Positions 8,788 through 29,037 of a stretch of 64,000 bases of DNA are shown here, in pieces. Position 1 is the first letter of the stretch. The number at the start of each line of letters is the position of its first letter. The notes beneath the pieces are model-generated. The model was not told the origin of the DNA. It saw nothing but the letters and a program-made list of their open reading frames with translations, and made no database searches. Origin of the DNA: a virus (taxonomy: Duplodnaviria; Heunggongvirae; Uroviricota; Caudoviricetes); IMG/VR virus record IMGVR_UViG_2506381017_000002. The stretch is one strand, 5' to 3'. A program made the translations under genes and the position numbers.

Positions 8788-9457
8788 TAACGAATTATAT
8801 CAATTTGTTCAGGAAGAATTACATAAACGAGGTATTACAGCATATTCTATTGGTGAGATTGCATACGAAATGCAGCATGATTATTTGCCAGATTATGAAA
8901 TTAGCGATTTTGCGGAACAATTCAGCGAAGTTCTTAAGAAGCGTGAGGTATTAAATCTTCTTGCATTTGCATTTGAACTAGACAATCTTGCTAATAAACG
9001 TATGTTTAGTGAACCAATTCAAAATATTATTGAAAATGATGCTGGCTTCTGGCAGATTGATGAAATTTTAGCTTCATCCTTGGCACAATTATTCGGCATG
9101 CTTGCGATTACGAATTACGGATACCTTGACAAAAATAAAGTAGGAATTGCAAGACGACTTGATGAGGAGGACAGTATTACTGTATTTTCAGACGATATTG
9201 TTTCTGCTCTTGCTTCGGCAGTAATTGGTCGCTGTGGTCATGGTTCCAAGCTGGAACTTGATGACAATACTGTAGAAGATAAACAAATTAATGATGAATT
9301 TAAAGAACTCAAGTTTGTGGTAAACGGTAAAGAAGTTGAACCCCAAGGCGATCTACGTTATTTTGCGAAGCCTATTAAGAGTGATCGTAAATTACCTAAT
9401 TGGGATCTAAATAAGTTTGCAAATGATTTAGGAAAAGCAATTAATAATTCACGGTAA
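8757..9457 (+). CDS. phosphatidylglycerophosphatase A family protein (PgpA/YutG-like)
   Basis: TTG start at 8757 with AAGGAGG 9 nt upstream. The blocks KRGITAYSIGEIAYEMQ, EPIQNIIENDAGFWQIDEILAS, ITNYGYLDK and FSDDIVSALASAV align with Bacillus YutG as I remember it. Confidence 0.65.
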
Positions 9458-9517
9458 CTCGCTGATAGCTTAGAAGAAGAATTCAGTCACGATTATTATG
9501 TCAACCTGAGTGTAGAC

Positions 9518-9910
9518 ATGGACGACGAATTTACTTGGCAACTAGCTATTGACCTATTAGATAATCAAATGGAATTAGTCGATGTAATTTTCGTCGATTT
9601 GGAATACTTCCTTGATTACGTATATCTCGAAGTTGATCCGCCTAGTGAGTTTGTTGATACAGCGCAAATGATTGCTCAATTCGTATTTGAACACGATCTT
9701 TATCCATATCCAGAGGACAGTAACGATTTAGAAGAAGCAGATGACGAAGACGATGAACTCGATATGAGTGAAATGACCAAGGCACTTGCTGCAATTACCC
9801 CATTATTCATGGAACACTTCAACTCATTGATAAAGTCTGGATCACTAGACAGTCTAATTGATATATTGAGTGACAAAGAAGATAATCGAAAGGATGATGC
9901 TAATGAATAA
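9518..9910 (+). CDS. acidic hypothetical protein
   Basis: 130 aa, very Asp/Glu-rich. Confidence 0.45.
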   Translation: MDDEFTWQLAIDLLDNQMELVDVIFVDLEYFLDYVYLEVDPPSEFVDTAQMIAQFVFEHDLYPYPEDSNDLEEADDEDDELDMSEMTKALAAITPLFMEHFNSLIKSGSLDSLIDILSDKEDNRKDDANE

Positions 9911-10265
9911 CGAAACACAAGAAAACATTGATATGAAATTGAGCCCAGATAATATTTACGGCTACATTTTTACAACCCAGGGCTATTCAGAAGATCAAGA
10001 CGACAAACGTAAGAAACCGTTATTCTTCTGGAAAGGATTCCATATGTATCCACTTGTTGTGCAAAATCCAGAAGACTATGATTTTGAAGATCCAGATTTT
10101 GATGCAACGGAATTGGAATTTTTGGTTTGTACAGAAGGCGGAGACCAAGATAACTATGAGTATGTTGAAATGAATGCAACAGAACTGCGTGATTTCTTAC
10201 GTGCGCATCCAGCATTCCGTATGTTCCCAGCAGCAGACTTATTTGAAGAATTACACGTGATTTAA
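9903..10265 (+). CDS. hypothetical protein
   Basis: ATG at 9903 overlaps the upstream stop; acidic. Confidence 0.45.
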   Translation: MNNETQENIDMKLSPDNIYGYIFTTQGYSEDQDDKRKKPLFFWKGFHMYPLVVQNPEDYDFEDPDFDATELEFLVCTEGGDQDNYEYVEMNATELRDFLRAHPAFRMFPAADLFEELHVI

Positions 10266-10266
10266 T

Positions 10267-10890
10267 ATGGCTCAATTATTCTTTAAATATGGGGCGATGA
10301 ATGCTGGCAAGTCATTGTCCCTATTGACTACAGCACACAATTATCAAGAACAAGATAAAGATGTTTTGATCATGACCAGTGCCATAGATGATCGCTATGG
10401 CGTTGGAAAGGTTTCAAGTCGAGTAGGATTAAGTTGTGAAGCACAACCAATTAAACAAGAAGATAACGTAATTGAATTGATTACAAAGTTATTGAAGTTA
10501 GACACAGAAGGAAAAACTGTTTGGCCACACTGTATTTTAATCGACGAAGCTGAATTCTTAACCGCACAGCAAGTCGTTGATTTAGCTAATATTGTTGACA
10601 CATATAATATTCCCATAATTTGTTATGGCTTACGGACTGATTTTCAATGCAATCTGTTTGAAGGCTCAAAAGCATTATTTGAAGTGGCCGACAAATTAGA
10701 AGAAATCAAAACAGTTTGTCAATGGTGTGACCACAAGGCAACAATGAATTTAAGAATGGTAGATGGCGCTCCAGCTTATGATGGAGATCAAATTCAAATT
10801 GGTGACCAGGAATATATTTCGGTTTGCCGATACCACTACACAAATCCATTAATTAAAGTAACTAAGAATAAAAAAGAAAAGGAAGTATGA
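10267..10890 (+). CDS. tdk: thymidine kinase
   Basis: P-loop GAMNAGKS, and a C-terminal zinc ribbon C.WC...A ... C..H; typical Tdk length of 207 aa. Confidence 0.9.
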   Translation: MAQLFFKYGAMNAGKSLSLLTTAHNYQEQDKDVLIMTSAIDDRYGVGKVSSRVGLSCEAQPIKQEDNVIELITKLLKLDTEGKTVWPHCILIDEAEFLTAQQVVDLANIVDTYNIPIICYGLRTDFQCNLFEGSKALFEVADKLEEIKTVCQWCDHKATMNLRMVDGAPAYDGDQIQIGDQEYISVCRYHYTNPLIKVTKNKKEKEV

Positions 10891-11516
10891 TATTTATTTT
10901 GAACACTAAGAATAACAACGGCGCAAAGATTGCATTAACAGCTATGGGAGCATTCGCACTAGGTCTTGTAGCAACAGGAACAACAGCAAATGCCGACACA
11001 ACTATTGACAGCAACCACGTGCAAGTAGAAGCGGGTGACACATTATCTGCCATCGCTCAAAAGCACGGAACCGACGTTGATACTCTTGTGCGTGAAAATC
11101 ATATTGCAAACAAACATTTAATTCACGTAGGAGATAAGTTGGTTGTTATGCCTGGTGTAAAGAACACCGATGTAAACGGGAAAGATACTGATAATCATGT
11201 AACGAACCCTGTAACTACACCAACTAGCGACCAACAAACAACTACAACTAATGACACACCAGTTACTCAACAAGCACCCGCTACAAGCGGTATTTCAAGC
11301 AACTCAGCTAAGGAAGCTATCGCCCAAAAGGAATCTGGCGGTAGTTACACAGCTACAAACGGTAAGTATATTGGGCGCTACCAACTTGATGCGAGTTATT
11401 TAAATGGTAATTACTCAATCGAAAATCAAGAAAAAGTGGCTGAACAATATGTGGCTCAAAGATACGGTAGTTGGGACGCTGCTTTAGCATTCCATAATGC
11501 ACATGGCTGGTACTAA
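10887..11516 (+). CDS. secreted LysM-domain protein with transglycosylase-like C-terminal domain
   Basis: Signal peptide; LysM block DTLSAIAQKHGTDVDTL...GDKL; C-terminal ESGGSYTATNGKYIGRYQ matching the ESGG..Y.A.N..G.YQ transglycosylase-like motif. Confidence 0.7.
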   Translation: MIFILNTKNNNGAKIALTAMGAFALGLVATGTTANADTTIDSNHVQVEAGDTLSAIAQKHGTDVDTLVRENHIANKHLIHVGDKLVVMPGVKNTDVNGKDTDNHVTNPVTTPTSDQQTTTTNDTPVTQQAPATSGISSNSAKEAIAQKESGGSYTATNGKYIGRYQLDASYLNGNYSIENQEKVAEQYVAQRYGSWDAALAFHNAHGWY

Positions 11517-11569
11517 ACTTAATTTCATTGTACTTAATTAACTAAGTATGATATTATAATTATGTAAAC

Positions 11570-11600
11570 AAAAAGAGCCATGCTGCAACATGACTCTTTC
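11570..11600. terminator. bidirectional rho-independent terminator
   Basis: Hairpin AGAGCCATG-CTGCAA-CATGACTCT with an A-run before and a T-run after. The same loop sequence recurs at 16083. Confidence 0.5.
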
Positions 11601-11637
11601 AGCGTCATCGGATTTTAGCGGTGGCAAGTTACTAACG

Positions 11638-11922
11638 TCATTTATTTTTATTAAACAAAGACTTCAGAAAACACTGCCCCGGTTCCAAAAGGCGGTGTTT
11701 TTCTTTTGCATCTCTGTCTAATTCTGTGTCATTCGGTGGAGATTTCCACGTCAACACAACCCTTTTTGCAGCTCGGATTACTGTGCCCACTGCATCAATA
11801 CAGTAAGCCACACTGAGTAACAATAGGCGTAGAGCCAGAAATATTCCGACCAAGCCTAGTATCGTTACAATCATCCCAACCGCCCAGGGGCAACTTGATT
11901 GCAAAAGTCCAATTAAGGACAA
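11638..11922 (-). CDS. small membrane protein (uncertain)
   Basis: 94 aa with two hydrophobic helices. It lies between the minus-strand ATGATATAAT promoter at ~12040 and the terminator at ~11600. An overlapping alternative ORF exists at 11795-12019. Confidence 0.3.
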   Translation of the reverse strand: MSLIGLLQSSCPWAVGMIVTILGLVGIFLALRLLLLSVAYCIDAVGTVIRAAKRVVLTWKSPPNDTELDRDAKEKHRLLEPGQCFLKSLFNKNK

Positions 11923-12039
11923 ACTTCACGGCGCACTCCCTTCTTACGGATAGAGGAGAGTACCACGAACTTACGCTCATAGTGACCACCATCCTTCCAT
12001 GGATTCGCGCCACCGCCATTAAATCTTTTTGACATTAAT

Positions 12040-12048
12040 ATTATATCA
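12040..12048 (-). promoter_or_regulatory. extended -10 promoter TGATATAAT (conserved ATGATATAAT motif, copy 1)
   Basis: Reverse complement of ATTATATCA; the same 10-mer recurs at 14241, 15194, 15680 and 61696. Confidence 0.4.
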
Positions 12049-12241
12049 TACGATTACAATAAAACAGTTAAACTATAGAATAATACTGCTCACAGCGTCT
12101 AAAATAATCCTTGACAAGTTTTGACTCCCACTAATTTACAAATGTGATACAATAACATTAAGGAAATCCAAATACGGATTCCTACCTTCCTAAGATGGCT
12201 CCACTTTATGTGGGGCTTTTCTTTTTACTTATTTTTAGTAA

Positions 12242-12353
12242 AGAAGTGTTATTTGTTTGTAATAACACTTCCTAATTTAAGCTATTTTAGCACTCATTTT
12301 TCTGGTAAAATAAAGAAGTGTTATAATTCTATATATCAAAAAATAACACTTGT
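12242..12353 (+). promoter_or_regulatory. two inverted-repeat operator-like sites (GAAGTGTTAT / ATAACACTTC)
   Basis: GAAGTGTTAT-N8-ATAACACTTC at ~12242-12272 and GAAGTGTTAT-N24-AATAACACTTG at ~12311-12353, directly upstream of the recombinase start at 12361. Confidence 0.4.
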
Positions 12354-12360
12354 ATTAGGT

Positions 12361-12960
12361 GGTTTTATGAAACAGTTAGTCTTACCCATAAAAGACTCTT
12401 ATGTGTTATCTGAAGTACAAGATACGTTACTAAATAACTTTAGAGCTGGTGTTAGAAACTACACTATCTTTCAAGTTGGAAAAGCTACCTTACTTCGAGT
12501 AAGTGACGTACTCAGATTAAAACAAGAAGATGTCTATGATAAATATGGTGAGGTAAAAAGAAATGCATTTATTAAAGACAAAAAGACGGGGAAGCAAAAT
12601 ACATTGTATTTAAAACCTGTCCGTGAAGATTTAGAAAATTACAAAAAATGGTTAGAAGAAAATGATTATTATTTAACAACGCCCTGGTTATTTCCTTCAA
12701 CTACCAGACCCAACAAACATATTGATGAAAGGCAATATTATACGGTCATGCACGAAGTTGGAGATCTCTTGGACATTCCATATCTTGGAACACACACTAT
12801 GAGAAAGACTGGGGCATATCGAGTTTATGTACAGAGTAATTATAATATCGGATTAGTCATGTCATTACTTAACCATTCATCAGAAGAAATGACCCTGAGA
12901 TATTTGGGATTAGATCAAGTATCCCGAGAAAGATTGTTGGACAAGGTCGATTTTGGGTAA
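12361..12960 (+). CDS. short tyrosine recombinase / phage-integrase-family protein
   Basis: AGGTGG RBS before ATG 12361. C-terminal catalytic signature LGTHTMRKTGAY ... LLNHSSEEMTLRYLGL (H-x-x-R ... H ... Y). Confidence 0.6.
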   Translation, partial: GFMKQLVLPIKDSYVLSEVQDTLLNNFRAGVRNYTIFQVGKATLLRVSDVLRLKQEDVYDKYGEVKRNAFIKDKKTGKQNTLYLKPVREDLENYKKWLEENDYYLTTPWLFPSTTRPNKHIDERQYYTVMHEVGDLLDIPYLGTHTMRKTGAYRVYVQSNYNIGLVMSLLNHSSEEMTLRYLGLDQVSRERLLDKVDFG

Positions 12961-12970
12961 GGAGAAAAAT

Positions 12971-13228
12971 ATGCAACCATTATATATTTTGCAGGGACTT
13001 ATATGTCTCAATATTCTATTTCAATTAATCGTTATTTCATTTTTTAATAGGAAGAAAAAGCATTGGATTGCCATTGCGCAAATGAGTTTAAGCGTTGTTG
13101 TTTTAGCTCTCGTCTCAACAGAGCTATTTGTTATTGGACGTGTCAACTTTCCAGTAGTGCTTACATTCATTATTCAATGCGCCTTGATTCGTATATTTTG
13201 GAAGACGCTTAGACAGTTCGAAAATTAA
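12971..13228 (+). CDS. small membrane protein
   Basis: AAGGAG RBS; hydrophobic throughout. Confidence 0.45.
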   Translation: MQPLYILQGLICLNILFQLIVISFFNRKKKHWIAIAQMSLSVVVLALVSTELFVIGRVNFPVVLTFIIQCALIRIFWKTLRQFEN

Positions 13229-13277
13229 CACTATATAATAGGAAGAAACTCGTTCAAAAAAGAAAAAGGTGAGGACT

Positions 13278-13952
13278 ATGGGAAGAAGATTTGGTAGCAA
13301 AAATGGTATGGGGACTGGTTCAACAAGGATGTCTAGGCATACTGGAAGTGGAAAATATGGTAGTGGTGGACGAAATTCTTCTATTCATGTTCCTACACGG
13401 CCATTCTGGACAACTAAGAAATGGAAAAAGAAACCATTATCTGCCAAGATATTTGATATTGTTATTATGTTAGCTGGATTAGCAATTATTTTGGTTGTAG
13501 CTATGTTTCTTGTTAATGGCACAAAGAACGGAAATAATAACGAGAATGTAACATCTGTATATTCAAGTAATAGCAAGAAAAAGAAGAATTCATCTTTTAG
13601 GGATAAGAATGAAGGAGTAGAGGGGACAAAAGAAACCGAAGAGGGGAGTACAGATACTATAAAAAGTGGAACGATCGATTCTTCACTTTCTAGAGAAGAA
13701 AGTATCGCTCGTGAAGAATCTATTGGTAGAAGCCATAGAGAATATAAGGATGATAACAACGGAAATAATAGTCGAGAATATTATGATGCAGATAGTATCT
13801 CATCTCGACTTCACATAACACCTACCCCTAAACGAAACCAGGACGAATACCCAAACCTGCAATCTCAGGAAACACCGCAACAAAGTCAATCCAATAACAC
13901 ATCAACTCAACCAGCCAAAAATAATGCTCCACAACCAATTAGTCCACAATAA
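13278..13952 (+). CDS. membrane-anchored low-complexity protein
   Basis: GGTGAGG RBS; a single TM helix followed by an S/N/E/K-rich disordered tail. Confidence 0.45.
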   Translation: MGRRFGSKNGMGTGSTRMSRHTGSGKYGSGGRNSSIHVPTRPFWTTKKWKKKPLSAKIFDIVIMLAGLAIILVVAMFLVNGTKNGNNNENVTSVYSSNSKKKKNSSFRDKNEGVEGTKETEEGSTDTIKSGTIDSSLSREESIAREESIGRSHREYKDDNNGNNSREYYDADSISSRLHITPTPKRNQDEYPNLQSQETPQQSQSNNTSTQPAKNNAPQPISPQ

Positions 13953-14240
13953 GCCTTATTATTATTCCTGCTTAGACGAAACGAAAAATTAATTAACATA
14001 TAGTTGATCATTTAGATTGCGCTGAGAGCTTGTTTTTAATGCTGAGTTGCAAGAAAAACTTCGGTAAAATAAAAAGGTAGATATTTTCCCACAAATATCT
14101 CACCCCAATATTCATATACTAAAATCTCCCTCAAGGAATTTTAGTGAAAATATGTTTCTTTATAACCTTTTGACATTCTACAATGAGTAGGATGTCTTTT
14201 TTTATACTCTGAAGCAGGATAAATGCCAAGTTTTATGTTA

Positions 14241-14249
14241 TGATATAAT
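14241..14249 (+). promoter_or_regulatory. extended -10 promoter TGATATAAT (copy 2)
   Basis: Context ATGTTATGATATAAT; no good -35 element. Confidence 0.35.
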
Positions 14250-14485
14250 TAGGGTATTATATGCTGCACAGTAAGAACCTAACAAAAATAGACATCTATC
14301 ATTACCTCAATTGAAGTAGTTAATAGATGCCTATTTTTCTTATTTCTATCAATTGTCCCCCCTGTGCAGGACACAAACCACCAATTTTATCATAACATTA
14401 AAATAATACTATGATCAAGTATGACTAATAGGGTATAATATACCTAGTTACTATTTAGAGTAACTATTTTCATCTTCATTGGAGC

Positions 14486-14519
14486 TCCAGGACATCTTCC
14501 CAGTCCTGGACTTCTTTTT
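14486..14519. terminator. rho-independent terminator (bidirectional)
   Basis: TCCAGGAC-ATCTTCCCA-GTCCTGGA followed by a T-run; it abuts the stop of the minus-strand gene at 14518. Confidence 0.5.
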
Positions 14520-15039
14520 ATCTAAATCCATAAAGAAACTGAACATACGAAAAAGACGTTACCATATTGTCTCCAAATCCGTCTAACATGTTTTTATTAT
14601 CCAGGAAAGGATATACCTTAATTCTCAATCCGATTAGTTCCTTATCAGAAAAACTGTCTAAATATTCATATACAGCTCGTGGTGAAGTAAACCATGTAGA
14701 CTCTAAGTCTTTTACAACCTCGAACTTATAGTTGATTGGATGAACTTCAATATTTTTCTTGCGTTTAATAGTTACTCGGAACTTTCTAGAGAACTTCCAT
14801 TCACCATATTTCATTCGTCCATGGACAGGCATTGATTGTTCTTGCCTTAAAGCAATCCACTTCTTGATTTGTATCCCCTTAGGGCGTGGCTGAAATTTCA
14901 TAGTTCGTGCAAACTTTTCTTTTAATTGTTCTCTAGTCAAACTAGTTGATTTATGTTCTAATTCCTTAATCCTTTTTTGTAATTGTTCATATTCTTGTAT
15001 TTCTTCTGGGGATAAATTTAATTTATTCATGTTTTTCAC
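14518..15039 (-). CDS. hypothetical protein
   Basis: 173 aa; GAGGTG RBS; basic with a coiled-coil N-terminus. Confidence 0.5.
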   Translation of the reverse strand: MKNMNKLNLSPEEIQEYEQLQKRIKELEHKSTSLTREQLKEKFARTMKFQPRPKGIQIKKWIALRQEQSMPVHGRMKYGEWKFSRKFRVTIKRKKNIEVHPINYKFEVVKDLESTWFTSPRAVYEYLDSFSDKELIGLRIKVYPFLDNKNMLDGFGDNMVTSFSYVQFLYGFR

Positions 15040-15193
15040 CTCAAAAAAAATATATCATACTCAGATTAAAAAATACGCAAATTTCAGTAATTACTGAAAA
15101 TGGAGTGAAATGCAGAAATTTTTGAAATTCTATTGACATCTTCATGTACAATACTAACTTTATAAAACATTCATTTTAGAAAATATTTGGCTA

Positions 15194-15202
15194 TGATATA
15201 AT
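15194..15202 (+). promoter_or_regulatory. extended -10 promoter TGATATAAT (copy 3)
   Basis: Context GGCTATGATATAAT. Confidence 0.35.
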
Positions 15203-15208
15203 AATAAT

Positions 15209-15292
15209 GTGCTATTTATCTCCCTAAGCGTAAATGGCATATTCATAAATAAATAACCCAGGAATCATTTCGGTTCCTGGGTCCCTTTTTAT
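15209..15292 (+). ncRNA. candidate small RNA (~85 nt) between the copy-3 promoter and its terminator
   Basis: No ORF; ends in the hairpin ACCCAGGAA-TCATTTCGG-TTCCTGGGT plus CCCTTTTTAT (15256-15292). Confidence 0.3.
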
Positions 15293-15551
15293 CTATATGA
15301 TATTTTTCACATTTTGTGCATAGTAAAAGACCGTCCTCGTATAACTTTGGCGAGTTGCAGGACGATCTTTTATTAGTTAATCTGTAACATGGCCACCGTC
15401 TTTTTAACGGGCCTGCTTTTTGCGTATCTATATTATAGCATGAAAGAAGGGAATTGAGTAGTCGGTGAATACTTAGTGAGGTGTTCATGAGTCTTTTGTG
15501 TTATAACCAGTCATTAAAATTTTTATTTTAATGCGACGAAAATAAGGCAAA

Positions 15552-15597
15552 CAAAAAAACACCATCTAATAAAGTTTTGACCGACTTTAGATGGTGC
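15552..15597 (-). terminator. rho-independent terminator (minus strand)
   Basis: CACCATCTA-loop-TAGATGGTG preceded by A7 on the top strand; the motif AAAAAACACCAT...ATGGTG.TTAGTCTC repeats at 15984-16032. Confidence 0.4.
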
Positions 15598-15679
15598 TTA
15601 GTCTCTACATTGTCTTATTATACACTATAGAAAAACTTAGTGTAAGTTGTAATCATTTAATTTCAAATAATCTTTCCTA

Positions 15680-15688
15680 TGATATAAT
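15680..15688 (+). promoter_or_regulatory. extended -10 promoter TGATATAAT (copy 4)
   Basis: Context TCCTATGATATAAT. Confidence 0.35.
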
Positions 15689-15820
15689 ATTTATGGATTA
15701 TAAGGAAGCGTTGGTGGTTCCTAATCTCTGGTTTATAATACTGGAGGTGCTGCCAATGAAAGCAGTTAAACAAACTTGACCCTAAGTTCAATTTTCGTAA
15801 GAAAGGAGAATGGCGGGTAA

Positions 15821-15970
15821 ATGAGTTTCAACAGCCTAGACCCATTTGAAGGCCTTGCAAAGGTTATTCGGGCTATGCGTGGACTCGATACCGGTGTGCA
15901 ATATGCCACCCTTGCCACATTTGTAATTGTGGTTGGCATTATTGCGTTTACTATTTGCTATACGCACTAG
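15821..15970 (+). CDS. small hydrophobic peptide (49 aa; holin or type I toxin-like)
   Basis: AAAGGAG RBS; MSFNSLDPFEGLAKVIRAMRGLDTGVQYATLATFVIVVGIIAFTICYTH with a C-terminal TM helix. Confidence 0.4.
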   Translation: MSFNSLDPFEGLAKVIRAMRGLDTGVQYATLATFVIVVGIIAFTICYTH

Positions 15971-15983
15971 CGTTAACAGCAAA

Positions 15984-16025
15984 TAAAAAACACCATTCGT
16001 GAGTTTAGCAGCGAACGATGGTGTT
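15984..16025 (-). terminator. rho-independent terminator (minus strand), repeat of the 15552 unit
   Basis: A-run plus an imperfect hairpin CACCATTCG...CGAACGATGGTG. Confidence 0.35.
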
Positions 16026-16082
16026 TAGTCTCAACGTCATTAAGAGATTAGGCATTATCAACAATACTTATTAATCTCAGGA

Positions 16083-16113
16083 AGAGCTATGCTGCAACAT
16101 AGCTCTTTTTGTT
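16083..16113 (+). terminator. rho-independent terminator
   Basis: AGAGCTATG-CTGCAA-CATAGCTCT plus TTTTTG; same loop as the hairpin at 11574. Confidence 0.55.
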
Positions 16114-16196
16114 TACACAAGTATTATAACATCTTATGTTCGTTACGTACATAAAAATTAAAAAATCTTCTTGACATTGTTATTTTGTAATAATTA

Positions 16197-16478
16197 CTAT
16201 GCTGCTTGCTCCATTTTAGTTAACTTAGTCCTCATCATTGCAGCTGCATGGCAATAAATTTCGTAACAAGGATCATCTTTTTCAAAGATTAATGCTTCGT
16301 TTAAATTAGGTGTCAAATATACTTCATTAACTTCAATATCAGAGGTCTTCATACCAAATCTACTCGTTAAGTGCTTGCCATCAACTCCACATACATATAA
16401 CTGTCCAACCTTGATTAAATAAAATGTCTCTTTTATAAGGATCACCGTTCCTCTCTTGGGGTATCTAAATAGTCCCAC
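16197..16478 (-). CDS. hypothetical protein (GTG start, uncertain)
   Basis: 93 aa with a non-ATG start. Confidence 0.3.
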   Translation of the reverse strand: MGLFRYPKRGTVILIKETFYLIKVGQLYVCGVDGKHLTSRFGMKTSDIEVNEVYLTPNLNEALIFEKDDPCYEIYCHAAAMMRTKLTKMEQAA

Positions 16479-16629
16479 AATAGCTGTTTTACAAATGGTG
16501 GAGCCGCATTAAAGTTAATTGCTGGTCGAATTAGCACATCTTTATTATCGCAAATACTAACCTCGACCTGTCCTCCAGCCATTTGTTCTAATCGTTGTTT
16601 AAATTCAGTTGCTAACAATTAACAACCTC

Positions 16630-16770
16630 CTAACTAACTTCTTTAACTAAGAATCCTGTTGCAATGATAATTGGGACAATAATAAATAGGCTGATACCAC
16701 CATATGCAATAGTAGATACGCCTAAAAACGCCAATATTACTAATAATGAAATAATTGCTGTGTAACTCAT
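16630..16770 (-). CDS. small membrane peptide (46 aa)
   Basis: MSYTAIISLLVILAFLGVSTIAYGGISLFIIVPIIIATGFLVKEVS; its ATG overlaps the upstream stop (TAATG). Confidence 0.35.
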   Translation of the reverse strand: MSYTAIISLLVILAFLGVSTIAYGGISLFIIVPIIIATGFLVKEVS

Positions 16771-17045
16771 TACGCCACCGCCCAATTAAATGTTTTTGCT
16801 TTTGACCGCAAATAATCTAGCTTTCCCCACATCATTTGTTTGTAATGTTTAGTAGCGTTAATTCCACAAAGATAATCTTTCGCGTCTTGAAACGAATCAA
16901 AAAACTCGTATTCACAGCACATAGTAGATAAGTTTTCTATGAAATGATAGAGCTCTAATGGATTCTCTGTATTTACCACGTCCCAATAATCTCTTTTAAG
17001 GTACGATGGACTTTCTGAAGTGGGCTGGACTAAAATAATTTTCAT
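16770..17045 (-). CDS. hypothetical protein
   Basis: 91 aa. Confidence 0.45.
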   Translation of the reverse strand: MKIILVQPTSESPSYLKRDYWDVVNTENPLELYHFIENLSTMCCEYEFFDSFQDAKDYLCGINATKHYKQMMWGKLDYLRSKAKTFNWAVA

Positions 17046-17052
17046 AATCTAC

Positions 17053-17271
17053 CTACCGTCTTACTACTTCGCCATCTACAATAATCTTGTAATGGTCCTC
17101 GTCAGTATATAAGCGAATAATCCCATCAGACATTTCTAGACGGACACCATTCATATTAACGATACTGCTGCCACATGAGTGGTATTGATTTAAGTTTTTG
17201 CCAGTACCCATGTTAATTGAAATTGCTTCTTGATCTAATACGTTTTTGATTTTTGTAAATAAGTTTTTCAA
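17053..17271 (-). CDS. hypothetical protein
   Basis: 72 aa. Confidence 0.45.
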   Translation of the reverse strand: MKNLFTKIKNVLDQEAISINMGTGKNLNQYHSCGSSIVNMNGVRLEMSDGIIRLYTDEDHYKIIVDGEVVRR

Positions 17272-17288
17272 AGTCTCTCTCCTTTCTA

Positions 17289-17630
17289 TTAACTTGCTTG
17301 AATGATTAAGAAAACTAGTGTAAAAACTACTTCTACAAGAAAAATGCCTATAATAACAATTCCAAGTTTTTCGTCTTTATCAGACATTTGGTTACTAGAA
17401 TTCTCATGCTCTCCTTCGCCTTGTTCTATGTTATCTGGATTTAACGGTGAGGCAGGATTAGCAGGATTAAGTGGGCTAATAGGACTCGCTGGGTTGCTTG
17501 GATTAGTTAAGCTTGTTGGACTAGCTGGATTAGATGGTGACATCATATCAGCATGTACAGTTGAACTTGGATAAAAAGAAAAGCCAATAATGACTAAAAT
17601 TACTGTTAAGGTTGTAATTATTTTCTTCAA
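17289..17630 (-). CDS. secreted/membrane protein with PxNPAS proline-rich repeats
   Basis: Signal peptide, then PSNPASPTSLTNPSNPASPISPLNPANPASPLNPDN, then a C-terminal TM helix. Confidence 0.5.
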   Translation of the reverse strand: MKKIITTLTVILVIIGFSFYPSSTVHADMMSPSNPASPTSLTNPSNPASPISPLNPANPASPLNPDNIEQGEGEHENSSNQMSDKDEKLGIVIIGIFLVEVVFTLVFLIIQAS

Positions 17631-17980
17631 GAGATATCTTCCTCGTCTTTTGACGTCTCTTCAGGTTTAACAGTGAGAATAATTACTTTGCGAAGGTCAA
17701 TCCCAACACCAGATGCGTCCTTAGTTGCGTACTGGAAAATACCTTCTGAGCCCTTATTCTTATGAGCAACTATCCATCCGACATCCTCTTTGTTCTGATG
17801 TGATAGATCGTATTCAGCGCCGTTTTCAAAAACTAAATGAATGGTGAAGAGCTTTTCGTTATCAAAATCGGAATAGCAATCAATAATGCCTTGTTTCGAA
17901 GCCTCAAAAGGTGATAACTCCTCTTTTTTCTCTAGTTCTTTTGCAGCCACATTTTCTGCTTTCTTATGAAAGAATCTCAT
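17627..17980 (-). CDS. hypothetical protein
   Basis: 117 aa; stop overlaps the next start. Confidence 0.45.
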   Translation of the reverse strand: MRFFHKKAENVAAKELEKKEELSPFEASKQGIIDCYSDFDNEKLFTIHLVFENGAEYDLSHQNKEDVGWIVAHKNKGSEGIFQYATKDASGVGIDLRKVIILTVKPEETSKDEEDIS

Positions 17981-17983
17981 GTA

Positions 17984-18307
17984 TTACTCCTCTTTATTTT
18001 TACTACTCTTTGCTTTTTTGAACGCATTTTTATCCTGACTTAAAATAAGCTGAGATATTTTTTTATAATTTTTCCAGCGACCTACCATGTCTCTACCCTT
18101 AACTCTTATGGAGCCACGATCTCCTCCTGGACGGTAGAAAATTCGAATATAGTTGAAACAATGATCAACATAAATCCACTCGTTATTATCGGTATCGTTA
18201 ACCCAGTACCATGGCCGATTTCTGCGATCAACTTCTTGGCTATATCGCTTTTTTCTTCGCTCAATTCTAGCAAGACGTTTCTTCTTTAATCGTTCTTTTT
18301 TTCGCAT
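17984..18307 (-). CDS. highly basic hypothetical protein
   Basis: 107 aa with K/R-rich termini. Confidence 0.45.
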   Translation of the reverse strand: MRKKERLKKKRLARIERRKKRYSQEVDRRNRPWYWVNDTDNNEWIYVDHCFNYIRIFYRPGGDRGSIRVKGRDMVGRWKNYKKISQLILSQDKNAFKKAKSSKNKEE

Positions 18308-18327
18308 AAAATATCCGTTTTATCTAA

Positions 18328-18936
18328 TTAGAACACCTTCCCGTCGTAAGGCTTGAACATAACATCGTGGAAATCAAAATCTCTCGCTTCGCTTAATGTA
18401 ATAATTCGAGTATTGCCACAACCGACCATCAAATTAAGCGGAATATCTTTTTCATCATCAGGAATGATCAAAATATTTGGCTTGTGTAAAGCATAAAGTA
18501 CCCCTTGTTCATACGTCTGACCAACGTCTGGTTTACTTGGCATAAATAATCCAATACCCATTTCCATGCCATACATTGCGTGCATATCCATTTGGTATGT
18601 ATTCTGTTGCCATTCACGGTCTCCCATTACTTCTGGGTGTTCATTTACATCAATGTCATTGTATTGATGGCTTAATGGGTGGTGACTGTATTGCAATGAA
18701 ACCGATGGATTTTGGCCTAATGCTTCTAATCCTTTTTCCATAAAATCAATTTCTTCTGGACTGAACCACGAGCATTGAATATATGCGCGGACTGCCGAAA
18801 CGCCATTATGAACTACTACATCTTCATATTTGCGCCCTGCTAATTCAACGGAGCCGTTTTGTACTGGCAATCCTCCAGCAATAGCCTCCAAGAATAATTT
18901 ACTTATTTCTGGTTGATGTGTGTTTTCTTGTGCCAT
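18328..18936 (-). CDS. nucleoside 2-deoxyribosyltransferase
   Basis: Aligns by eye with lactobacillus NDT: ...YSHHPLSHQYNDIDVNEHPE..., GMEMGIGLFMPSKPD...YALHKPNILIIPDDEKDIPLNLM...DFDFHDVMFKPYDGKVF at the C-terminus. Confidence 0.8.
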   Translation of the reverse strand: MAQENTHQPEISKLFLEAIAGGLPVQNGSVELAGRKYEDVVVHNGVSAVRAYIQCSWFSPEEIDFMEKGLEALGQNPSVSLQYSHHPLSHQYNDIDVNEHPEVMGDREWQQNTYQMDMHAMYGMEMGIGLFMPSKPDVGQTYEQGVLYALHKPNILIIPDDEKDIPLNLMVGCGNTRIITLSEARDFDFHDVMFKPYDGKVF

Positions 18937-19046
18937 AACTCTCTATTCCTCCATATTCTTTATGTATCATTACCATTTTCTTCTTGAATTCAATAGCACC
19001 AACAGACAAAGAATCGCTGTGGTGATTACTACTAATACTTCATTAC

Positions 19047-19400
19047 TCATGACCAGGGTTCCACATATGGTCCCGATTCAACACTAAAACTGTTACCTTT
19101 CCAAATCTTCTCTAACGCATCTTTCATCTCGGCATTAACCATAATCGGGTCACAACCGAAAACCGTAAGCTTGTATCTGCGTTCATTGTCCTGTGATAAC
19201 TCTTTTTCTGCGTCACGTCTAAATCTATATTCTTGACCATCTAGTTTGATATAGATATTTTGGTCGTAATTATTCTTTGGTACTTGTTCAAAGAACTTTT
19301 TTCGCTCGCCTGCGTCAGCAAACAGATCAACATTATTATCATAAGCACTGGCTAACAATACTTTGTTACCCTTAGTATCTTTGTAATATACAGTAATCAT
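19047..19400 (-). CDS. hypothetical protein
   Basis: 117 aa. Confidence 0.45.
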   Translation of the reverse strand: MITVYYKDTKGNKVLLASAYDNNVDLFADAGERKKFFEQVPKNNYDQNIYIKLDGQEYRFRRDAEKELSQDNERRYKLTVFGCDPIMVNAEMKDALEKIWKGNSFSVESGPYVEPWS

Positions 19401-19426
19401 TTTTATCCTCCTTAAAAACTGATATG

Positions 19427-19621
19427 CTACTTAAGTCTTAATCCCGCTTTAATAGATTGCTCAATGCCGTAATTACTTAAATCTAACTTACGCACTCGTT
19501 TATGTTTACCACATTTACTACACTGATAGATTTCTGACATATTGCTACCGTCCCAGTAGGGGTAATAGATGTCGTCTAACCACTTATAATCATGTTTACA
19601 AAATAACTGTTTAAGCTGCAT
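19427..19621 (-). CDS. small zinc-finger-like protein
   Basis: C.H ... CSKCGKH. Confidence 0.4.
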   Translation of the reverse strand: MQLKQLFCKHDYKWLDDIYYPYWDGSNMSEIYQCSKCGKHKRVRKLDLSNYGIEQSIKAGLRLK

Positions 19622-19949
19622 TTTTCTTAACCTTTACAAATTTATCCTGAGTCGCTGACCCTTCATATATTGTTTCATCATACTCAAATTCATTTCTATA
19701 CATTTCAATATTCCCGACAACTTTTTCTGCTTCAGATAAGTATCGGTTGTATCTATTAAGTTGATATCTGCGAATACGAATTGTGTCATGATCAAACCAA
19801 TAACGCTCATCATTATTAGTTGCTTCCGCTTCCTTGTCAGCATAACTTAACGCTAATTCATATGAATCAGTAACACCAACTACATATTCTGCATAATCGC
19901 TATACCAACCACTAGCGTGAATTACTACATAAATGTCTTTTGTTTTCAT
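19611..19949 (-). CDS. hypothetical protein
   Basis: 112 aa. Confidence 0.45.
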   Translation of the reverse strand: MKTKDIYVVIHASGWYSDYAEYVVGVTDSYELALSYADKEAEATNNDERYWFDHDTIRIRRYQLNRYNRYLSEAEKVVGNIEMYRNEFEYDETIYEGSATQDKFVKVKKNAA

Positions 19950-19978
19950 TTATTCTCCTTATAAAACTGGCATTTTAC

Positions 19979-20167
19979 TTAAAATGGCATGAAAGACATA
20001 ATGCCATAAATGCCCAAAATAATAGGCGCTGATAGCATTACAACACTTTCAGCGTTACTCTTTGCATGATTTTCTGATCCGTTATCAACTATTCTTATAG
20101 CGAGATACATCGTCACTTCAATTACGAACGTTGCAATAATTGGAATTAATAAGTGTTCAATCATCAA
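19979..20167 (-). CDS. small membrane protein
   Basis: 62 aa, hydrophobic. Confidence 0.4.
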   Translation of the reverse strand: MMIEHLLIPIIATFVIEVTMYLAIRIVDNGSENHAKSNAESVVMLSAPIILGIYGIMSFMPF

Positions 20168-20534
20168 AATTCACCGTTCTATCCTTATCTAAGTAGACCA
20201 ATCTTGGCTTAACAGAAATATCAGTTGCTCCCTCTTCACGTTGCTTTAAGACGAAAGCCCATGCGTCTTCTTCTCTTGAAAAGACATCGGTTTCGCGTAA
20301 TGGACCATAATCATCATGGGTCGTGTACTCGGCAATGTAAACACGTTGCATGCCTTGTTCTGTACGTTTCCATTTTGGGCGATCTTCTGATGCCTCATAA
20401 GTAATTTTTACACCTACACCCTCAGCAGATTGAATTACTGTACTTACAATCCTGTCAATGGCCTTTCCGTCAAAATAATCATCTTGACTAGGTTGAATTT
20501 TAATCATAGCTGTCTTTACTTCATCACTTAACAT
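20157..20534 (-). CDS. hypothetical protein
   Basis: 125 aa. Confidence 0.45.
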   Translation of the reverse strand: MLSDEVKTAMIKIQPSQDDYFDGKAIDRIVSTVIQSAEGVGVKITYEASEDRPKWKRTEQGMQRVYIAEYTTHDDYGPLRETDVFSREEDAWAFVLKQREEGATDISVKPRLVYLDKDRTVNFDD

Positions 20535-20536
20535 AT

Positions 20537-21061
20537 TTAACCCTCCGCAATCTTTTGCTTAGCCTCAGAAATAACCTGCATACTTCCGTCCAGTGTTTTC
20601 CTAATTTCACTGAATTCTTTCAATAACTGTTCCCAAGCAACATCAGCAAAACGGTGATTAACATGAGGACTCTTCATTCGTTCACAATAATCCATCATCG
20701 CTTGAATATTGTCGTAGATTTTACCGGCAGTTCGAACTTTCTTCTGCTTTACTAACAAATCTAATGCTTCATTAATAGCTGATTTAACTTCTGGATTGGT
20801 ATTCACCTTGAAACCATTATCGTCATGCTCATTCTCTGAATAAACAGTAATAACTTGCTTTTGGCGTGTATCAATGACAAACACAATATCGTGTAGTCGA
20901 TACTTTTCACGATTATTATTCTGTTTCTCAACGAATTCACCTTGAGATAATAAACGACTCATCCAGCCATCAAATTCAGTTTTAGTGATATTGAATCTTG
21001 TTAAGATTCGTTCTTTGGCATGTTCTGTTACTTTATAAAGCGGAAAGTTCTTAACTCCCAT
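20537..21061 (-). CDS. hypothetical protein
   Basis: 174 aa. Confidence 0.45.
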   Translation of the reverse strand: MGVKNFPLYKVTEHAKERILTRFNITKTEFDGWMSRLLSQGEFVEKQNNNREKYRLHDIVFVIDTRQKQVITVYSENEHDDNGFKVNTNPEVKSAINEALDLLVKQKKVRTAGKIYDNIQAMMDYCERMKSPHVNHRFADVAWEQLLKEFSEIRKTLDGSMQVISEAKQKIAEG

Positions 21062-26295: not shown

Positions 26296-26440
26296 TTGAT
26301 CCTATACGCCAGAGGTAGGACTCGAACCTACAAAATCTATAGCATTTTGTGACTATGGAGTAGACGGGAGTCGAACCCGTGTCCAACCAAACCAGTTTCC
26401 AAATACATTTTAGACTTATTAGGATTATGTACTTAATTCT
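26296..26440 (-). other. two abutting tRNA-like elements of non-canonical structure
   Basis: T-arm-like CACGGG-TTCGACT-CCCGT plus CTACTCCA at ~26356-26400, directly followed by hairpin ACAAAAT-GCTATAG-ATTTTGT plus T arm GTAGG-TTCGAGT-CCTAC plus CTCTGGCG at 26307-26355. No matching 5' acceptor strands were found. Confidence 0.3.
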
Positions 26441-26791
26441 TAAATCAAAATAGTCACATAATCATTTTCCAAAGACTATTTTAATCGATCTAGTTTTAAT
26501 ACTTAGTCACACTTAAACTAGCAAATCATGAACTAAGACCAGAGGGGTGAAATGTGATAGCTAGTATCCTTATCTGGTATCAAGATATTAACCAAGTGCC
26601 TATAAGCTAGGCAGCTAAAGCTGTAACTCTATGGTTATTTGCTTTTATATTTAAATGAAAGTATTTCGGCGTTATCTTCCGTAAGTCGTATTTAGGGCTT
26701 TATTTGACTGTCGAATCCATAAACTACCCCAGAATAGAGCTTTAAATCATAGCTCCAAATAATAATTCAAATAGACTTCTTGATGAAGTCT

Positions 26792-26865: not shown

Positions 26866-27209
26866 TACTTATATATCAAAATATTTCTTGTGGTGGAACC
26901 CCTAACAGCTTTTGCCTTATTCCACATTTATTCCTACTAGCTTCATAGGATGGGCATAGTCCTTATCCCTGCTAAGGGGGCGCTGTCGTTACTCGCTGAA
27001 TATTTTAATATGTTCTTGTTAAGGGAGACTCATTTCAAGACCTCAACATCGGTCGGTTGAATGACTACTTACGCGCTAAGGATGTATACTATCCTTTCAT
27101 CATCTTCCCACCTGGTAGCTAACCCCACTCACGGATTCCGCACATGACTACGCTCCGTCAGCGAATATTGTACCTGTCTTTTATAAAATCCTGATTTTAA
27201 AAACCAGAA

Positions 27210-27282
27210 TGGACCTTGCAGGACTCGAACCTACGACCGAGCGGTTATGAGCCGCCTGCTCTACCAACTGAGCTAAAGGTCC
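27210..27282 (-). tRNA. tRNA-Met (anticodon CAT; could be Ile2 if lysidinylated)
   Basis: GGACCTT-TA-GCTC-AGTTGGTA-GAGC-A-GGCGG-CTCATAA-CCGCT-CGGTC-GTAGG-TTCGAGT-CCTGC-AAGGTCC-A gives a full canonical cloverleaf; no encoded CCA. Confidence 0.9.
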
Positions 27283-27428
27283 AAAATTTAGAGAACACGA
27301 TTAATCACTTCATGTTCTCAAAGTAACAAGGATAGTTGATTAGTCCTATCGCCGAGACGCCCATTCAAGTGCGTTGCTCTCCTTTACATACCAACCACTA
27401 CATTCAAAGCGTTGACGCTTGCTACTCT

Positions 27429-27515
27429 AACTACGAAGACAGGATTCGAACCTGCAACCTAGGATCAAGTTTTATCGGTGTACACCCCTATGCTCTAGCC
27501 AATTGAGCTACTTCG
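27429..27515 (-). tRNA. tRNA-like gene (~87 nt, long-variable-arm type; anticodon unresolved)
   Basis: Acceptor TACGAAG/CTTCGTA 7/7, D arm GCTC-AATTGGCTA-GAGC, T arm GCAGG-TTCGAAT-CCTGT; 36 nt between the D and T arms that I could not fold unambiguously. Confidence 0.4.
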
Positions 27516-27888
27516 TAAGAATAATGTCCACCCAGAAACGTTAGATGGTGAACTGATAAGTTAAGAGCTTGTTGACTGTGCTAAGTATCAGTCTGATTAC
27601 TCTTAGAGCTTATATCTTTTTGATGGACATTGACTTAGCAATTCTGTCCACGAATGATTAATTAGTAGGTTTACCACCAACCTACCTTGTAGAAACGCCG
27701 TTAAGCTTTCGTGGTCATGGTCACTCATTCTACTTTCACGGGGTTTGCCATGACACAAGCCGCTTGGTTTTTCTTAATAGCCTGACTAGGGCTACCAAAA
27801 TACAACAACTACCAATGGGCAGTGAAACGCCATGATTTAGGCGTATATCCAAATTCACTTGGTGTTCTCCTTGCATACCAAGGAGAAT

Positions 27889-27950
27889 AGCTTGGGAGGG
27901 AATTGAACCCTAAACGTACGCTGGCACCCTGCCATTATCACCAAGCCCCA
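27889..27950 (-). pseudogene. truncated tRNA-like element (~60 nt)
   Basis: Acceptor GGCTTGG/CCAAGCT and T arm TAGGG-TTCAATT-CCCTC, but only 26 nt between; no D or anticodon arms. Confidence 0.3.
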
Positions 27951-28800: not shown

Positions 28801-28885
28801 ACCTAGAGAGGGATTTGAACCCCCGAACCCGAAGGAACGGTTTTGGAGACCGTCGCGTTTGACCAGACTTCGCTATCTAGGTATT
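28801..28885 (-). tRNA. tRNA with long variable arm and anticodon CCA (85 nt)
   Basis: ACCTAGA-TA-GCG-AAGTCTGGTCAAA-CGC-G-ACGGT-CTCCAAA-ACCGT-TCCTTCGGGTTC-GGGGG-TTCAAAT-CCCTC-TCTAGGT-G. The acceptor is a perfect 7/7, the D stem is 3 bp (class II like) and the variable arm is 12 nt. A UGG reader with class II architecture is unusual. Confidence 0.6.
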
Positions 28886-29037
28886 AATAACGTGCCATGC
28901 CAGCGTAAACACGTTATTAGATCGAATTGAAAAATGTAAAGGTAAAGGTATATGGAAAATATAACCTATTGAACATACGTTAGGTGTTTTTACATTCCAA
29001 ACGTTTTCCGTCATTTGGAACAACCTATTACTAGGAA

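Follow-up and report, generated by a model that had tools for sequence, protein, structure and literature searches.

This report concerns a small cassette, here termed cassette B, at positions 15678–16131 of a 64,000-nucleotide (nt) stretch of DNA that is listed in IMG/VR as virus record IMGVR_UViG_2506381017_000002 (the window). Judging from comparative sequence evidence, cassette B is probably a functional type I toxin-antitoxin (TA) module. A strong extended -10 promoter would produce an mRNA of ~418 nt for a membrane peptide of 49 amino acids (aa), the candidate toxin, and a convergent promoter at the far end would produce an antisense RNA of ~135 nt, the candidate antitoxin, which would end just past the stop codon. 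The cassette is also a probable new sequence family of a known kind, type I TA, because membership in every named family fails on Rfam and Pfam thresholds. The expected role of such a module would be loss-of-element killing, or growth arrest triggered by stress or phage. Alignments place the window with Limosilactobacillus reuteri, as a megaplasmid or phage-plasmid-like element. A wider joint reading is offered tentatively, in which this new type I TA family of the L. reuteri group would use a 3′-overlapping antisense RNA to control translation ~350 nt away by toggling a hairpin over a Shine-Dalgarno (SD) sequence, and in which one antisense family would serve two unrelated membrane toxins.

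The first-pass annotation of this DNA had proposed a type I TA-like locus with a small peptide bearing one transmembrane (TM) helix and a convergent antisense RNA. This core idea is supported here by comparative evidence, in the form of purifying selection on the peptide, a conserved minus-strand promoter and terminator on either side of the 3′UTR, and copies of the cassette without a convergent operon. The parts of cassette B are listed below, including its open reading frame (ORF), a short upstream ORF (uORF) in the leader, and the untranslated regions (UTRs).

15678..16131: cassette B, intact
15678..15688, plus strand: sense promoter with extended -10 element TATGATATAAT; predicted transcription start ~15695
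15695..16112, plus strand: predicted toxin mRNA of ~418 nt, with a 125-nt 5′UTR, the 49-aa ORF and a 142-nt 3′UTR with an intrinsic terminator
15695..15729, plus strand: predicted 5′ arm of a long-range helix; alternative local pairing with the uORF SD and start codon, 15740–15758
15756..15779, plus strand: leader uORF, MKAVKQT*, with a strong SD, GGAGG, at 15743–15747
15821..15970, plus strand: candidate toxin of 49 aa, MSFNSLDPFEGLAKVIRAMRGLDTGVQYATLATFVIVVGIIAFTICYTH, amphipathic at the N-terminus, then with the motif AMxGLxxGVQYA and, at the C-terminus, a TM helix
15980..16131, minus strand: predicted antisense RNA gene; -10 element TGTTATAAT at 16131->16123, start ~16117, end ~15980
15984..16032, minus strand: intrinsic terminator of the predicted antisense RNA, a hairpin and U-run that begins 14 nt past the ORF stop and is conserved in all lineages
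16043..16077, plus strand: predicted 3′UTR arm of the long-range helix, within the region covered by the antisense RNA
16083..16113, plus strand: intrinsic terminator of the toxin mRNA, AGAGCTATG-CTGCAA-CATAGCTCT and a U-run; its complement is the 5′ stem-loop of the antisense RNA

Conservation of cassette B

Further copies of the cassette came to light in metagenomes, through look-ups of the exact protein and in a genome scan, and the copies fall into four lineages. Type 1 comprises the window, L003 and L007–L015; type 2 comprises L001, L004, L005 and L006; type 3 comprises L017–L022; and type 4 is chromosomal and is found in L. albertensis (L098) and L. caviae (L093). The sense -10 element occupies the same place in all lineages, and homology with diverged cassettes begins exactly there. 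In the pairwise comparison with L001, the homologous unit is 73.5% identical and runs from the sense -10 element (15678) to 16128, while homology with close relatives ends at 16132, just upstream of the minus-strand extended -10 element. The chromosomal copies (L098 2790–4640, on a scaffold of L. albertensis Lr3000, and L093) lie inside a TA island, in which MazE/PrlF-like and PemK/MazF-like genes come immediately after the cassette and a ParE-type pair comes next. No convergent gene or operon is found downstream of the cassette in these two species, and the minus-strand promoter and terminator are intact there.

The 49-aa ORF, one of the features of the first-pass annotation, was confirmed at 15821–15970 with a single strongly hydrophobic stretch at residues 29–47 (KD19, Kyte-Doolittle, 2.32), and its RefSeq entry is the hypothetical protein WP_019253498.1. 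The peptide is kept in all four lineages at 48–67% identity and a length of 47–51 aa. The motif AMxGLxxGVQYA does not vary, and after it come the hydrophobic helix (one stretch with KD19 1.7–2.6 in each type) and a short basic tail. Between lineages, the ratio of nonsynonymous to synonymous substitution rates (dN/dS) is 0.09–0.22 with dS saturated at ~0.9 or more (most pairs 1–3), and because of this the 49-aa ORF is, on comparative grounds, a real gene under purifying selection. Toxins of the type I class are small hydrophobic proteins targeted to the membrane, usually of <60 aa, and the 49-aa peptide has this form. The position of AMxGLxxGVQYA ahead of the C-terminal anchor suggests that the peptide may have a specific target or partner, and that it may not act as a generic pore or by general membrane damage.

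The peptide has no match in Pfam or NCBIfam (E <= 0.1 or E <= 1) or in PHROG, and a profile search of the PDB with the peptide family found no relative. A HMMER scan of 1.84 billion cluster representatives returned only two members, both of the peptide’s own family. The genome scan found nothing by peptide pattern and only L. albertensis and L. caviae by DNA pattern. A scan of IMG/VR with a conserved 17-mer gave 53 loci, and the sole model match among them was discarded as a false positive inside a serine recombinase gene. So far, the distribution of the cassette is limited to the L. reuteri species group. Some metagenome variants (P0001–P0003 and P0006) have recorded products of 61–75 aa, in which the stop is replaced (..CYTHQ..) and the frame continues through the antisense terminator; the loci fetched for these variants do not reproduce the exact recorded products.

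The non-coding parts of cassette B are also constrained, as measured by alignment, with UTR identities between lineages of 63–85% compared to 46–48% at third codon positions. On the minus strand, the -10 element is at the same place in all lineages; types 1, 3 and 4 add a TG extension to it, and type 2 has a supporting TTGAAA -35 element. The two terminators are crossed, with that of the plus strand lying ~110 nt beyond that of the minus strand. The stem of the plus-strand terminator shows a compensatory change from UA to CG, and in type-2 cassettes it contains wobble pairs which, as read from the alignment, favour the plus strand. Together, the conserved minus-strand -10 element and the crossed terminators predict an antisense RNA of ~135 nt directed against the 3′UTR, with three stem-loops and full complementarity to its target. 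The predicted overlap of mRNA and antisense RNA spans 15980–16113, which would be ~130 nt of perfect complementarity, and the gene signals for it are conserved in the four lineages. The predicted antisense RNA has a fold z of -3.4, and its consensus structure consists of three hairpins with 5 compensatory pairs.

The first-pass annotation had described the antisense terminator as one of two near-identical minus-strand terminator repeats. Both are present as AAAAAACACCAT...ATGGTG hairpins, at 15554–15599 and 15985–16030 (2 compared to 0.15 expected), each with a stem followed by a minus-strand U-run. The first of them (15552–15608) belongs to a 77-nt remnant of a paralogous cassette and not to a working unit. 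What had been called repeated terminator modules are one working antisense terminator and one remnant of recombination.

mRNA structure and a proposed relay

Type I toxin mRNAs are typically structured in a way that limits their own translation, and the predicted structure of the cassette B mRNA is of this kind. It has a minimum free energy of -142.6 kcal/mol, with z = -7.0 compared to shuffles, and its predicted features include a helix between the two ends of the molecule and a hairpin over an SD sequence.

The helix joins the 5′ end to the 3′UTR over 30 base pairs (bp). Separate predictions for the other variants give the same helix, and the duplex energies in 8 variants range from -28 to -37 kcal/mol. 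In an alignment of eight sequences, 96.2% of the cells are paired, compared to 27–47% in controls with a slid partner. Six pairs are compensatory, with both sides changed, and the observed values were reached in 0 of 500 shuffles. The compensatory changes sit at the very positions that distinguish the lineages.

A uORF of 6–7 codons is found at the same position in every lineage (MKAVKQT, MQAVRQI, MTVRKT, MKAVRKT, MVVLEET, MEVVKFC). Its SD (GGAGG or GAGG) lies 8–9 nt upstream, its stop is 23–24 nt from the main SD, and the main SD is 11–12 nt from the start of the 49-aa ORF. The length and position of the uORF are thus constant across lineages, and its peptide sequence is variable. In the free mRNA, the uORF SD has an unpaired probability of 0.19–0.43 in types 1, 3 and 4. 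When the 3′UTR is blocked in silico, as a mimic of bound antisense RNA, this probability is 0.00–0.07 in all 8 variants.

These features can be combined into a model. In the free mRNA, the first 35 nt would be paired with the 3′UTR, and the ribosome-binding site (RBS) of the 7-codon uORF would be left accessible. Translation of the uORF, stopping 23–24 nt before the main RBS, would then open the region for translation of the peptide. The 3′UTR arm of the helix lies inside the antisense target, so that the antisense RNA and the mRNA 5′ end would compete for the 3′UTR. An antisense RNA bound there would displace the 5′ end, which would fold onto the uORF RBS and start codon and turn translation off. 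The long RNA duplex, we infer, would be a likely substrate of RNase III. A relay of this sort, in which an antisense RNA bound at the 3′ end would close the leader uORF and thereby also stop the coupled translation of the peptide, is a possible arrangement that the modelling suggests, and it is held with some doubt.

Cassette A and the other modules of the islet

A second cassette, termed cassette A, is found in inverted orientation. The first-pass annotation had noted that a terminator with a CTGCAA loop near 16083 is duplicated near 11574. The match is present, with 16082–16108 and 11573–11599 identical at 89%, but the real relation is a longer 80-nt inverted repeat (11519–11598 and 16082–16161), which marks the second, inverted cassette. 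Its features are as follows:

11519..12050, minus strand: cassette A, inverted relative to cassette B, with the same promoter type and a conserved 190-nt 5′UTR
11638–11922, minus strand: cassette A protein, 94 aa, single TM; frame kept in comparison with plasmid p53608_1 (L002)
~11563–11712, plus strand: predicted cassette A antisense RNA, with its terminator inside the end of the ORF

In comparison with L002, the UTRs of cassette A are conserved, the 5′UTR highly so, while the coding part is strongly diverged and has changed much faster than the UTRs; the ORF is nevertheless kept. The mRNA has a fold z of -7.6, and pairing of the 5′ end with the 3′UTR in a helix is predicted there too. A covariance model, R1, was built solely from the cassette B antisense RNAs. 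It matches the cassette A antisense RNA over its full length (11563–11708, plus strand; 56.4 bits, E = 1e-8), the L002 counterpart of this RNA (37.8 bits), and the remnant at 15549–15665 (50.8 bits). The 94-aa protein has no Pfam, NCBIfam or PHROG match, and BLASTP finds no alignment between it and the 49-aa peptide; homology of the two cassette proteins had been considered and was rejected on this ground. The R1 match beside an unrelated protein thus indicates, at the level of sequence, that one antisense-RNA family accompanies two different membrane proteins. With the Rfam RatA model, the cassette A antisense RNA aligns over the full length but weakly, at 33.8 bits (E = 0.19; gathering threshold 49), and this is the only RatA-like alignment. 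A 74-aa frame that overlaps the start of the cassette A ORF is open in both copies and shows no protein conservation.

The 80-nt inverted repeats in the two cassettes flank 4.5 kb of DNA in which a small tyrosine recombinase gene lies (12208–12960; Pfam Phage_integrase). An invertible segment, comprising 11519–16161 and the recombinase, was considered and rejected. The repeats are best read as the homologous antisense modules of the two cassettes, and not as recombination sites.

Cassette B itself lies in a gene-poor islet. Besides the intact cassette (15678–16131), the islet holds a decayed locus of Hol_Tox/rli28 type, the remnant at 15537–15613, two to three modules that resemble small RNA (sRNA) genes, and an orphan gene of 170 aa:

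14231..14402: convergent promoter-like pair, TGTTATGATATAAT (plus strand, 14236–14249) and TGTTATGATAAAAT (minus strand, 14397–14384), with a bidirectional terminator at 14286–14338
14445..14522, plus strand: hairpin and CCAGGA terminator module; leftover terminator of a two-gene operon deleted in the window
14518..15039, minus strand: orphan protein gene, 170–173 aa, with homologs only in L. reuteri-type sequences
15192..15292, plus strand: sRNA-like module of ~85 nt with promoter TATGATATAAT, a hairpin at the 5′ end whose loop, CUCCCUAA, is C-rich, and a terminator of the CCAGGA type
15294..15323, plus strand: scar of a deleted Hol_Tox/rli28-type toxin gene, with truncated promoter TATATGATAT, junction 15303/15304, and last codons ..FTFCA* at 15306–15323
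15326..15440, minus strand: orphaned antisense RNA gene of the deleted Hol_Tox locus, with -10 element TGCTATAAT at 15440->15432 and a bidirectional terminator at 15326–15371
15537..15613, minus strand: remnant of the 3′ end of a paralogous type-2 cassette, 77 nt, from the last codons through the antisense terminator

All motifs that the first-pass annotation had listed are present where it placed them, and each is commoner than chance. The three ATGATATAAT promoters lie at 14240, 15193 and 15679 on the plus strand; the window has 6 in total compared to 0.77 expected, and 0 of 100 shuffles reached 6. From its sequence, ATGATATAAT reads as an extended -10 promoter (TGnTATAAT). Two divergent copies are found far from the islet, at 61636 (minus strand) and 61695 (plus strand). 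Downstream of the latter are ~110 nt without an obvious ORF and then a hairpin near 61795–61822, which also ends a convergent gene; this promoter and hairpin may form another sRNA. The two plus-strand CCAGGA...TCCTGG stems, at 14487–14509 and 15258–15280, compare to 0.03 expected, and CTTTTTATCTA follows both. The first of these hairpins, reported at 14486 as part of the regulatory locus, exists, but comparison with plasmid LL7 identifies it as the leftover terminator of the deleted two-gene operon: LL7 has the same 78 nt directly after the two genes, which are present in L001, L016 and L002.

The convergent pair at 14231–14402 is bounded by 41-nt inverted repeats (14231–14271 and 14362–14402), each with a promoter-like TGTTATGATA(T/A)AAT element, and it would produce two overlapping sRNAs of ~90–100 nt. 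Its fold z values are -3.9 and -6.7, and it is 92% conserved in L001 and L016. It contains no conserved ORF, the small ORFs at 14250–14380 included, and the ATG of the sole small ORF is lost in L001 and L016. Plasmid LL7 (L102 2470–2520) has a single copy of the 41-nt repeat, directly followed by the hairpin and terminator module, and the convergent pair is therefore a variable insert. It was also considered as a miniature inverted-repeat transposable element, and this was rejected because the LL7 comparison shows no clean empty site or target duplication.

The module at 15192–15292 has a fold z of -6.5 and no Rfam match. It is conserved in L002, in L003 and in L007, where the stem has undergone one compensatory change. 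The orphan gene is, as first reported, the only long gene of the islet. Its likely start is the ATG at 15030, which gives 170 aa. The protein has no Pfam, NCBIfam or PHROG match, and its AlphaFold2 model (predicted local distance difference test, pLDDT, 63.5) has no Foldseek match in the PDB at E <= 0.001. A perfect 18-nt palindrome, TTTCAGTAATTACTGAAA, lies at 15082–15099, just upstream of the promoter region of this gene, and could be an operator.

The decayed locus next to cassette B can be understood by alignment with relatives. A clean deletion of 163 nt at 15303/15304 has removed the end of a promoter, a leader and 23 codons, and has left the last codons, a bidirectional terminator and a convergent antisense promoter. 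At this place, relatives carry an RNA that passes Rfam rli28 (48–77 bits; gathering threshold 45) and that encodes a 29-aa peptide, MSAYQALMLMLAFATFIIALLTFIFTFCA, a member of Pfam Hol_Tox (42.4 bits). The orphaned antisense gene at 15326–15440 is the most conserved block in the alignment and has a fold z of -3.4; the Rfam search finds no match there. On plasmids of Listeria, an rli28 that overlaps the gene of a BsrH-like toxin has a RatA convergent with it, and rli28 and RatA are highly expressed (PMC9484302). The layout of the 15326–15440 locus matches this arrangement of rli28 and convergent RatA (PMC9484302). The remnant at 15537–15613 is 93–95% identical to L004 and L006.

The alignments also bear on the element as a whole. 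Positions 9000–21000 of the window match large L. reuteri plasmids: 73% of this region aligns at 91% identity to a 129-kb plasmid of strain FN041 (L001), and p53608_1 and other plasmids align to parts of it. A phage identity for the window was considered and set aside, since 50,697 phage records gave no relevant match in either near or distant searches and the window matched L. reuteri plasmids instead; the islet and the first 25 kb had only two matches of ~50 nt among these records, to L. reuteri phages. The element carries a transfer-messenger RNA (tmRNA), several tRNAs, an RNA ligase and a thymidine kinase, and it looks phage-plasmid-like because of these genes. The tmRNA gene is at 26356–26730 (minus strand; tag peptide ANNHRVTALAA), and tRNA genes for Met, Trp and Arg and one with an odd anticodon loop are at 27209–29564 (minus strand). 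It is unusual for an element to carry a tmRNA when the rest of it matches L. reuteri plasmids, and this agrees with a phage-plasmid.

The GC skew changes sign near 14–16 kb, and the islet is therefore the meeting point of rightward and leftward gene blocks. Two genes of the sister plasmids are absent at 14210/14220, and the 163 nt found in relatives, including a toxin gene, are absent at 15303/15304. Relative to sister plasmids, the gene-poor state of the islet is partly the result of such deletions. The boundaries of its modules are mosaic across relatives. The islet is best read as an accretion zone for small modules of the addiction or defence type between opposed operon blocks.

Alternative explanations and known systems

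Several points weigh against a functional type I module. Both promoters, both transcription starts and the antisense RNA are predictions, and the toxicity of the 49-aa peptide is putative. The peptide is atypical for a type I toxin in having a C-terminal TM helix and a strongly conserved N-terminal motif, and no known toxin or antitoxin family matches at threshold in Pfam, NCBIfam, PHROG or Rfam. The covariation is based on 8 sequences from ~4 independent lineages, and the structure was derived from these same sequences. In type 2, the free mRNA already has a predicted local anti-SD hairpin, with an SD unpaired probability of only 0.02–0.11, and the switch model is therefore not uniformly supported. 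Finally, the cassette lies at the end of a leftward operon that lacks its own terminator, in the window and in most plasmid relatives, and read-through could therefore supply part of the antisense transcription. On the supporting side, relatives have a genuine Hol_Tox/rli28 type I toxin at the position that adjoins the cassette in the window.

The last of these difficulties leads to a simpler account, in which cassette B would be an ordinary junction of convergent genes. The hairpin at 15984–16032 would be the terminator of the leftward operon and the 49-aa ORF a harmless membrane protein, with no dedicated antisense RNA and no TA. It agrees with this account that no minus-strand terminator lies between the last stop of the operon (16197) and 16032, that the cassette adjoins the same leftward operon in most plasmid relatives, and that cassette A likewise adjoins a rightward LysM operon. 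However, four lineages have kept the minus-strand -10 element in the same position, some with the TG extension and others with the -35 to compensate, and homology breaks immediately upstream of it. L. albertensis and L. caviae have no convergent operon, yet their minus-strand promoter and terminator are intact. Moreover, the crossed terminators create a 130-nt overlap that ordinary junctions do not need, and the same antisense unit accompanies a different membrane-protein gene. A plain junction is thus an unlikely explanation. Evolutionary debris, meaning recombination scars and pseudogenes between operon blocks with small elements that have no current function, would account for the three decay events (the two genes at 14210/14220, the 163 nt at 15303/15304, and the remnant 15537–15613) and for the mosaic module boundaries, but cassette B is intact and shows coding and non-coding purifying selection in four lineages, including chromosomal copies in other species. 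As an explanation of the whole islet, debris is very improbable.

It is also conceivable that the islet is mainly a set of trans-acting sRNA genes. The RNAs from 14256–14345 (plus strand), 14378–14282 (minus strand) and 15209–15292 (plus strand), together with the antisense RNA, would then regulate distant mRNAs of the plasmid or host, and the peptide would be secondary. As an example, the C-rich CUCCC loop of the 15209–15292 RNA could pair with ribosome-binding sites. Each of these genes has a strong promoter motif and a terminator, and their folds (z -3.9 to -6.7) go beyond shuffles; in the 15209–15292 hairpin a compensatory change preserves the stem and the C-rich loop is retained, and the 14231–14402 pair has no conserved ORF. 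Against this, the RNAs match no Rfam family and no target was identified, the available relatives are too close (82–96%) for a test of module structure, and 14445–14522 is accounted for as a leftover operon terminator. The cassette B peptide is under clear purifying selection and hence is no by-product. A role in trans for the islet as a whole is regarded as improbable, and it can hold for the side modules without displacing the type I TA reading of cassette B.

New type I TA families are still found mostly by chance observation. If the TA reading of cassette B is true, it would add a new type I family whose lactobacillus hosts include probiotic strains. In L. reuteri strains, modules of this type influence how stably plasmids are kept and possibly how well phages are tolerated, and they could be used as tools for plasmid retention or counter-selection. 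The cassette would be a convenient model, with a compact, covariation-supported mRNA whose 3′ end apparently signals to the RBS through the 5′–3′ helix and the leader uORF. An antisense scaffold that is common to two unrelated putative toxins bears on how modules evolve by exchange of parts, and the islet, with an intact cassette, an orphaned antitoxin and a fragment side by side, would be a snapshot of TA turnover.

The first-pass annotation had stated that the locus has no described counterpart. This holds in so far as the intact cassette lies outside named families, but not for the islet as a whole, which contains, in decayed form, a type I locus of the Hol_Tox/rli28 (BsrH-like) kind that is well described, nor for the architecture of the intact cassette, which is that of txpA/RatA and bsrG/SR4. 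Hol_Tox (PF16935)/rli28 (RF01492) systems, which are BsrH/BsrE-like, occupied 15303/15304 in sister plasmids with a convergent antisense promoter and a shared terminator. Cassette B is different, as its peptide has no PF16935 match and its mRNA no RF01492 match. Among type I systems on plasmids of Lactobacillales, par (Fst RNA I/RNA II of pAD1) and Lpt (Lacticaseibacillus plasmids) also have convergent transcripts that share terminator sequences. In Fst-type control, direct repeats at the 5′ ends pair with the region of toxin translation initiation. In cassette B, the mRNA 5′ end resembles the antisense RNA and is not its complement, so direct pairing at the 5′ end is excluded. The cassette B peptide has no Pfam or NCBIfam match to Fst/par or Hok/Gef profiles.

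Cassette B has the architecture of the 3′-overlap type I systems of Firmicutes, namely txpA/RatA, EF3263 and bsrG/SR4. This architecture has been described for txpA/RatA and EF3263 (PMC2887945). The same arrangement is predicted for both cassettes of the window, in cassette B as the overlap 15980–16113 and in cassette A with a terminator inside the end of the ORF. Like txpA/RatA (Bacillus subtilis skin element; Rfam RF01776) and its relative EF3263 (Enterococcus faecalis), cassette B belongs to a mobile or prophage-like element and encodes a small peptide with a single TM helix, and as in txpA/RatA the antisense RNA has a 5′ stem-loop complementary to the terminator of the toxin mRNA. The cassette B peptide differs in lying outside the toxin families and in having its TM helix at the C-terminus, after a conserved soluble motif. 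No homology to TxpA-related toxins was found with Pfam and NCBIfam or in the HMMER scan, which returned the peptide’s own family only. The RatA gathering score of 49 bits is not reached, with no hit for the cassette B antisense RNA in the window or in five relatives and 33.8 bits for cassette A. Ref66 (Rfam RF02839), an Enterococcus antisense sRNA, scores 29.5–30.4 bits against a gathering threshold of 92, in type-1 cassettes only. Membership in RatA or Ref66 was rejected, as the scores are below threshold and are not reproducible across lineages. To our knowledge, a leader uORF and a helix between the mRNA 5′ end and 3′UTR have not been described for txpA.

These last features recall hok/mok/sok of plasmid R1. 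In that system, translation of a leader frame is needed for translation of the toxin, and pairing of the 5′ and 3′ ends holds the state of the full-length mRNA. Cassette B resembles it in the leader reading frame, the predicted 5′–3′ pairing and the location on a plasmid. It differs in that Sok acts at the 5′ leader while the cassette B antisense RNA covers the 3′UTR, and in that mok overlaps hok while the cassette B uORF is separate and has 6–7 codons; the host of hok is also Gram-negative, and the cassette B peptide has no Hok/Gef Pfam match. With bsrG/SR4 of the B. subtilis SPbeta prophage there is no relation by sequence or Rfam, the sole BsrG match being a 19.6-bit fragment in the rli28-like RNA of L007. 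SR4 reportedly promotes decay of the mRNA and also alters the structure around a distant RBS, which is the same logic as that of the remote switch proposed for cassette B. In cassette B, the proposed relay would be an explicit helix of 30 bp that joins the 5′ end to the 3′UTR, and it would act by way of a leader uORF.

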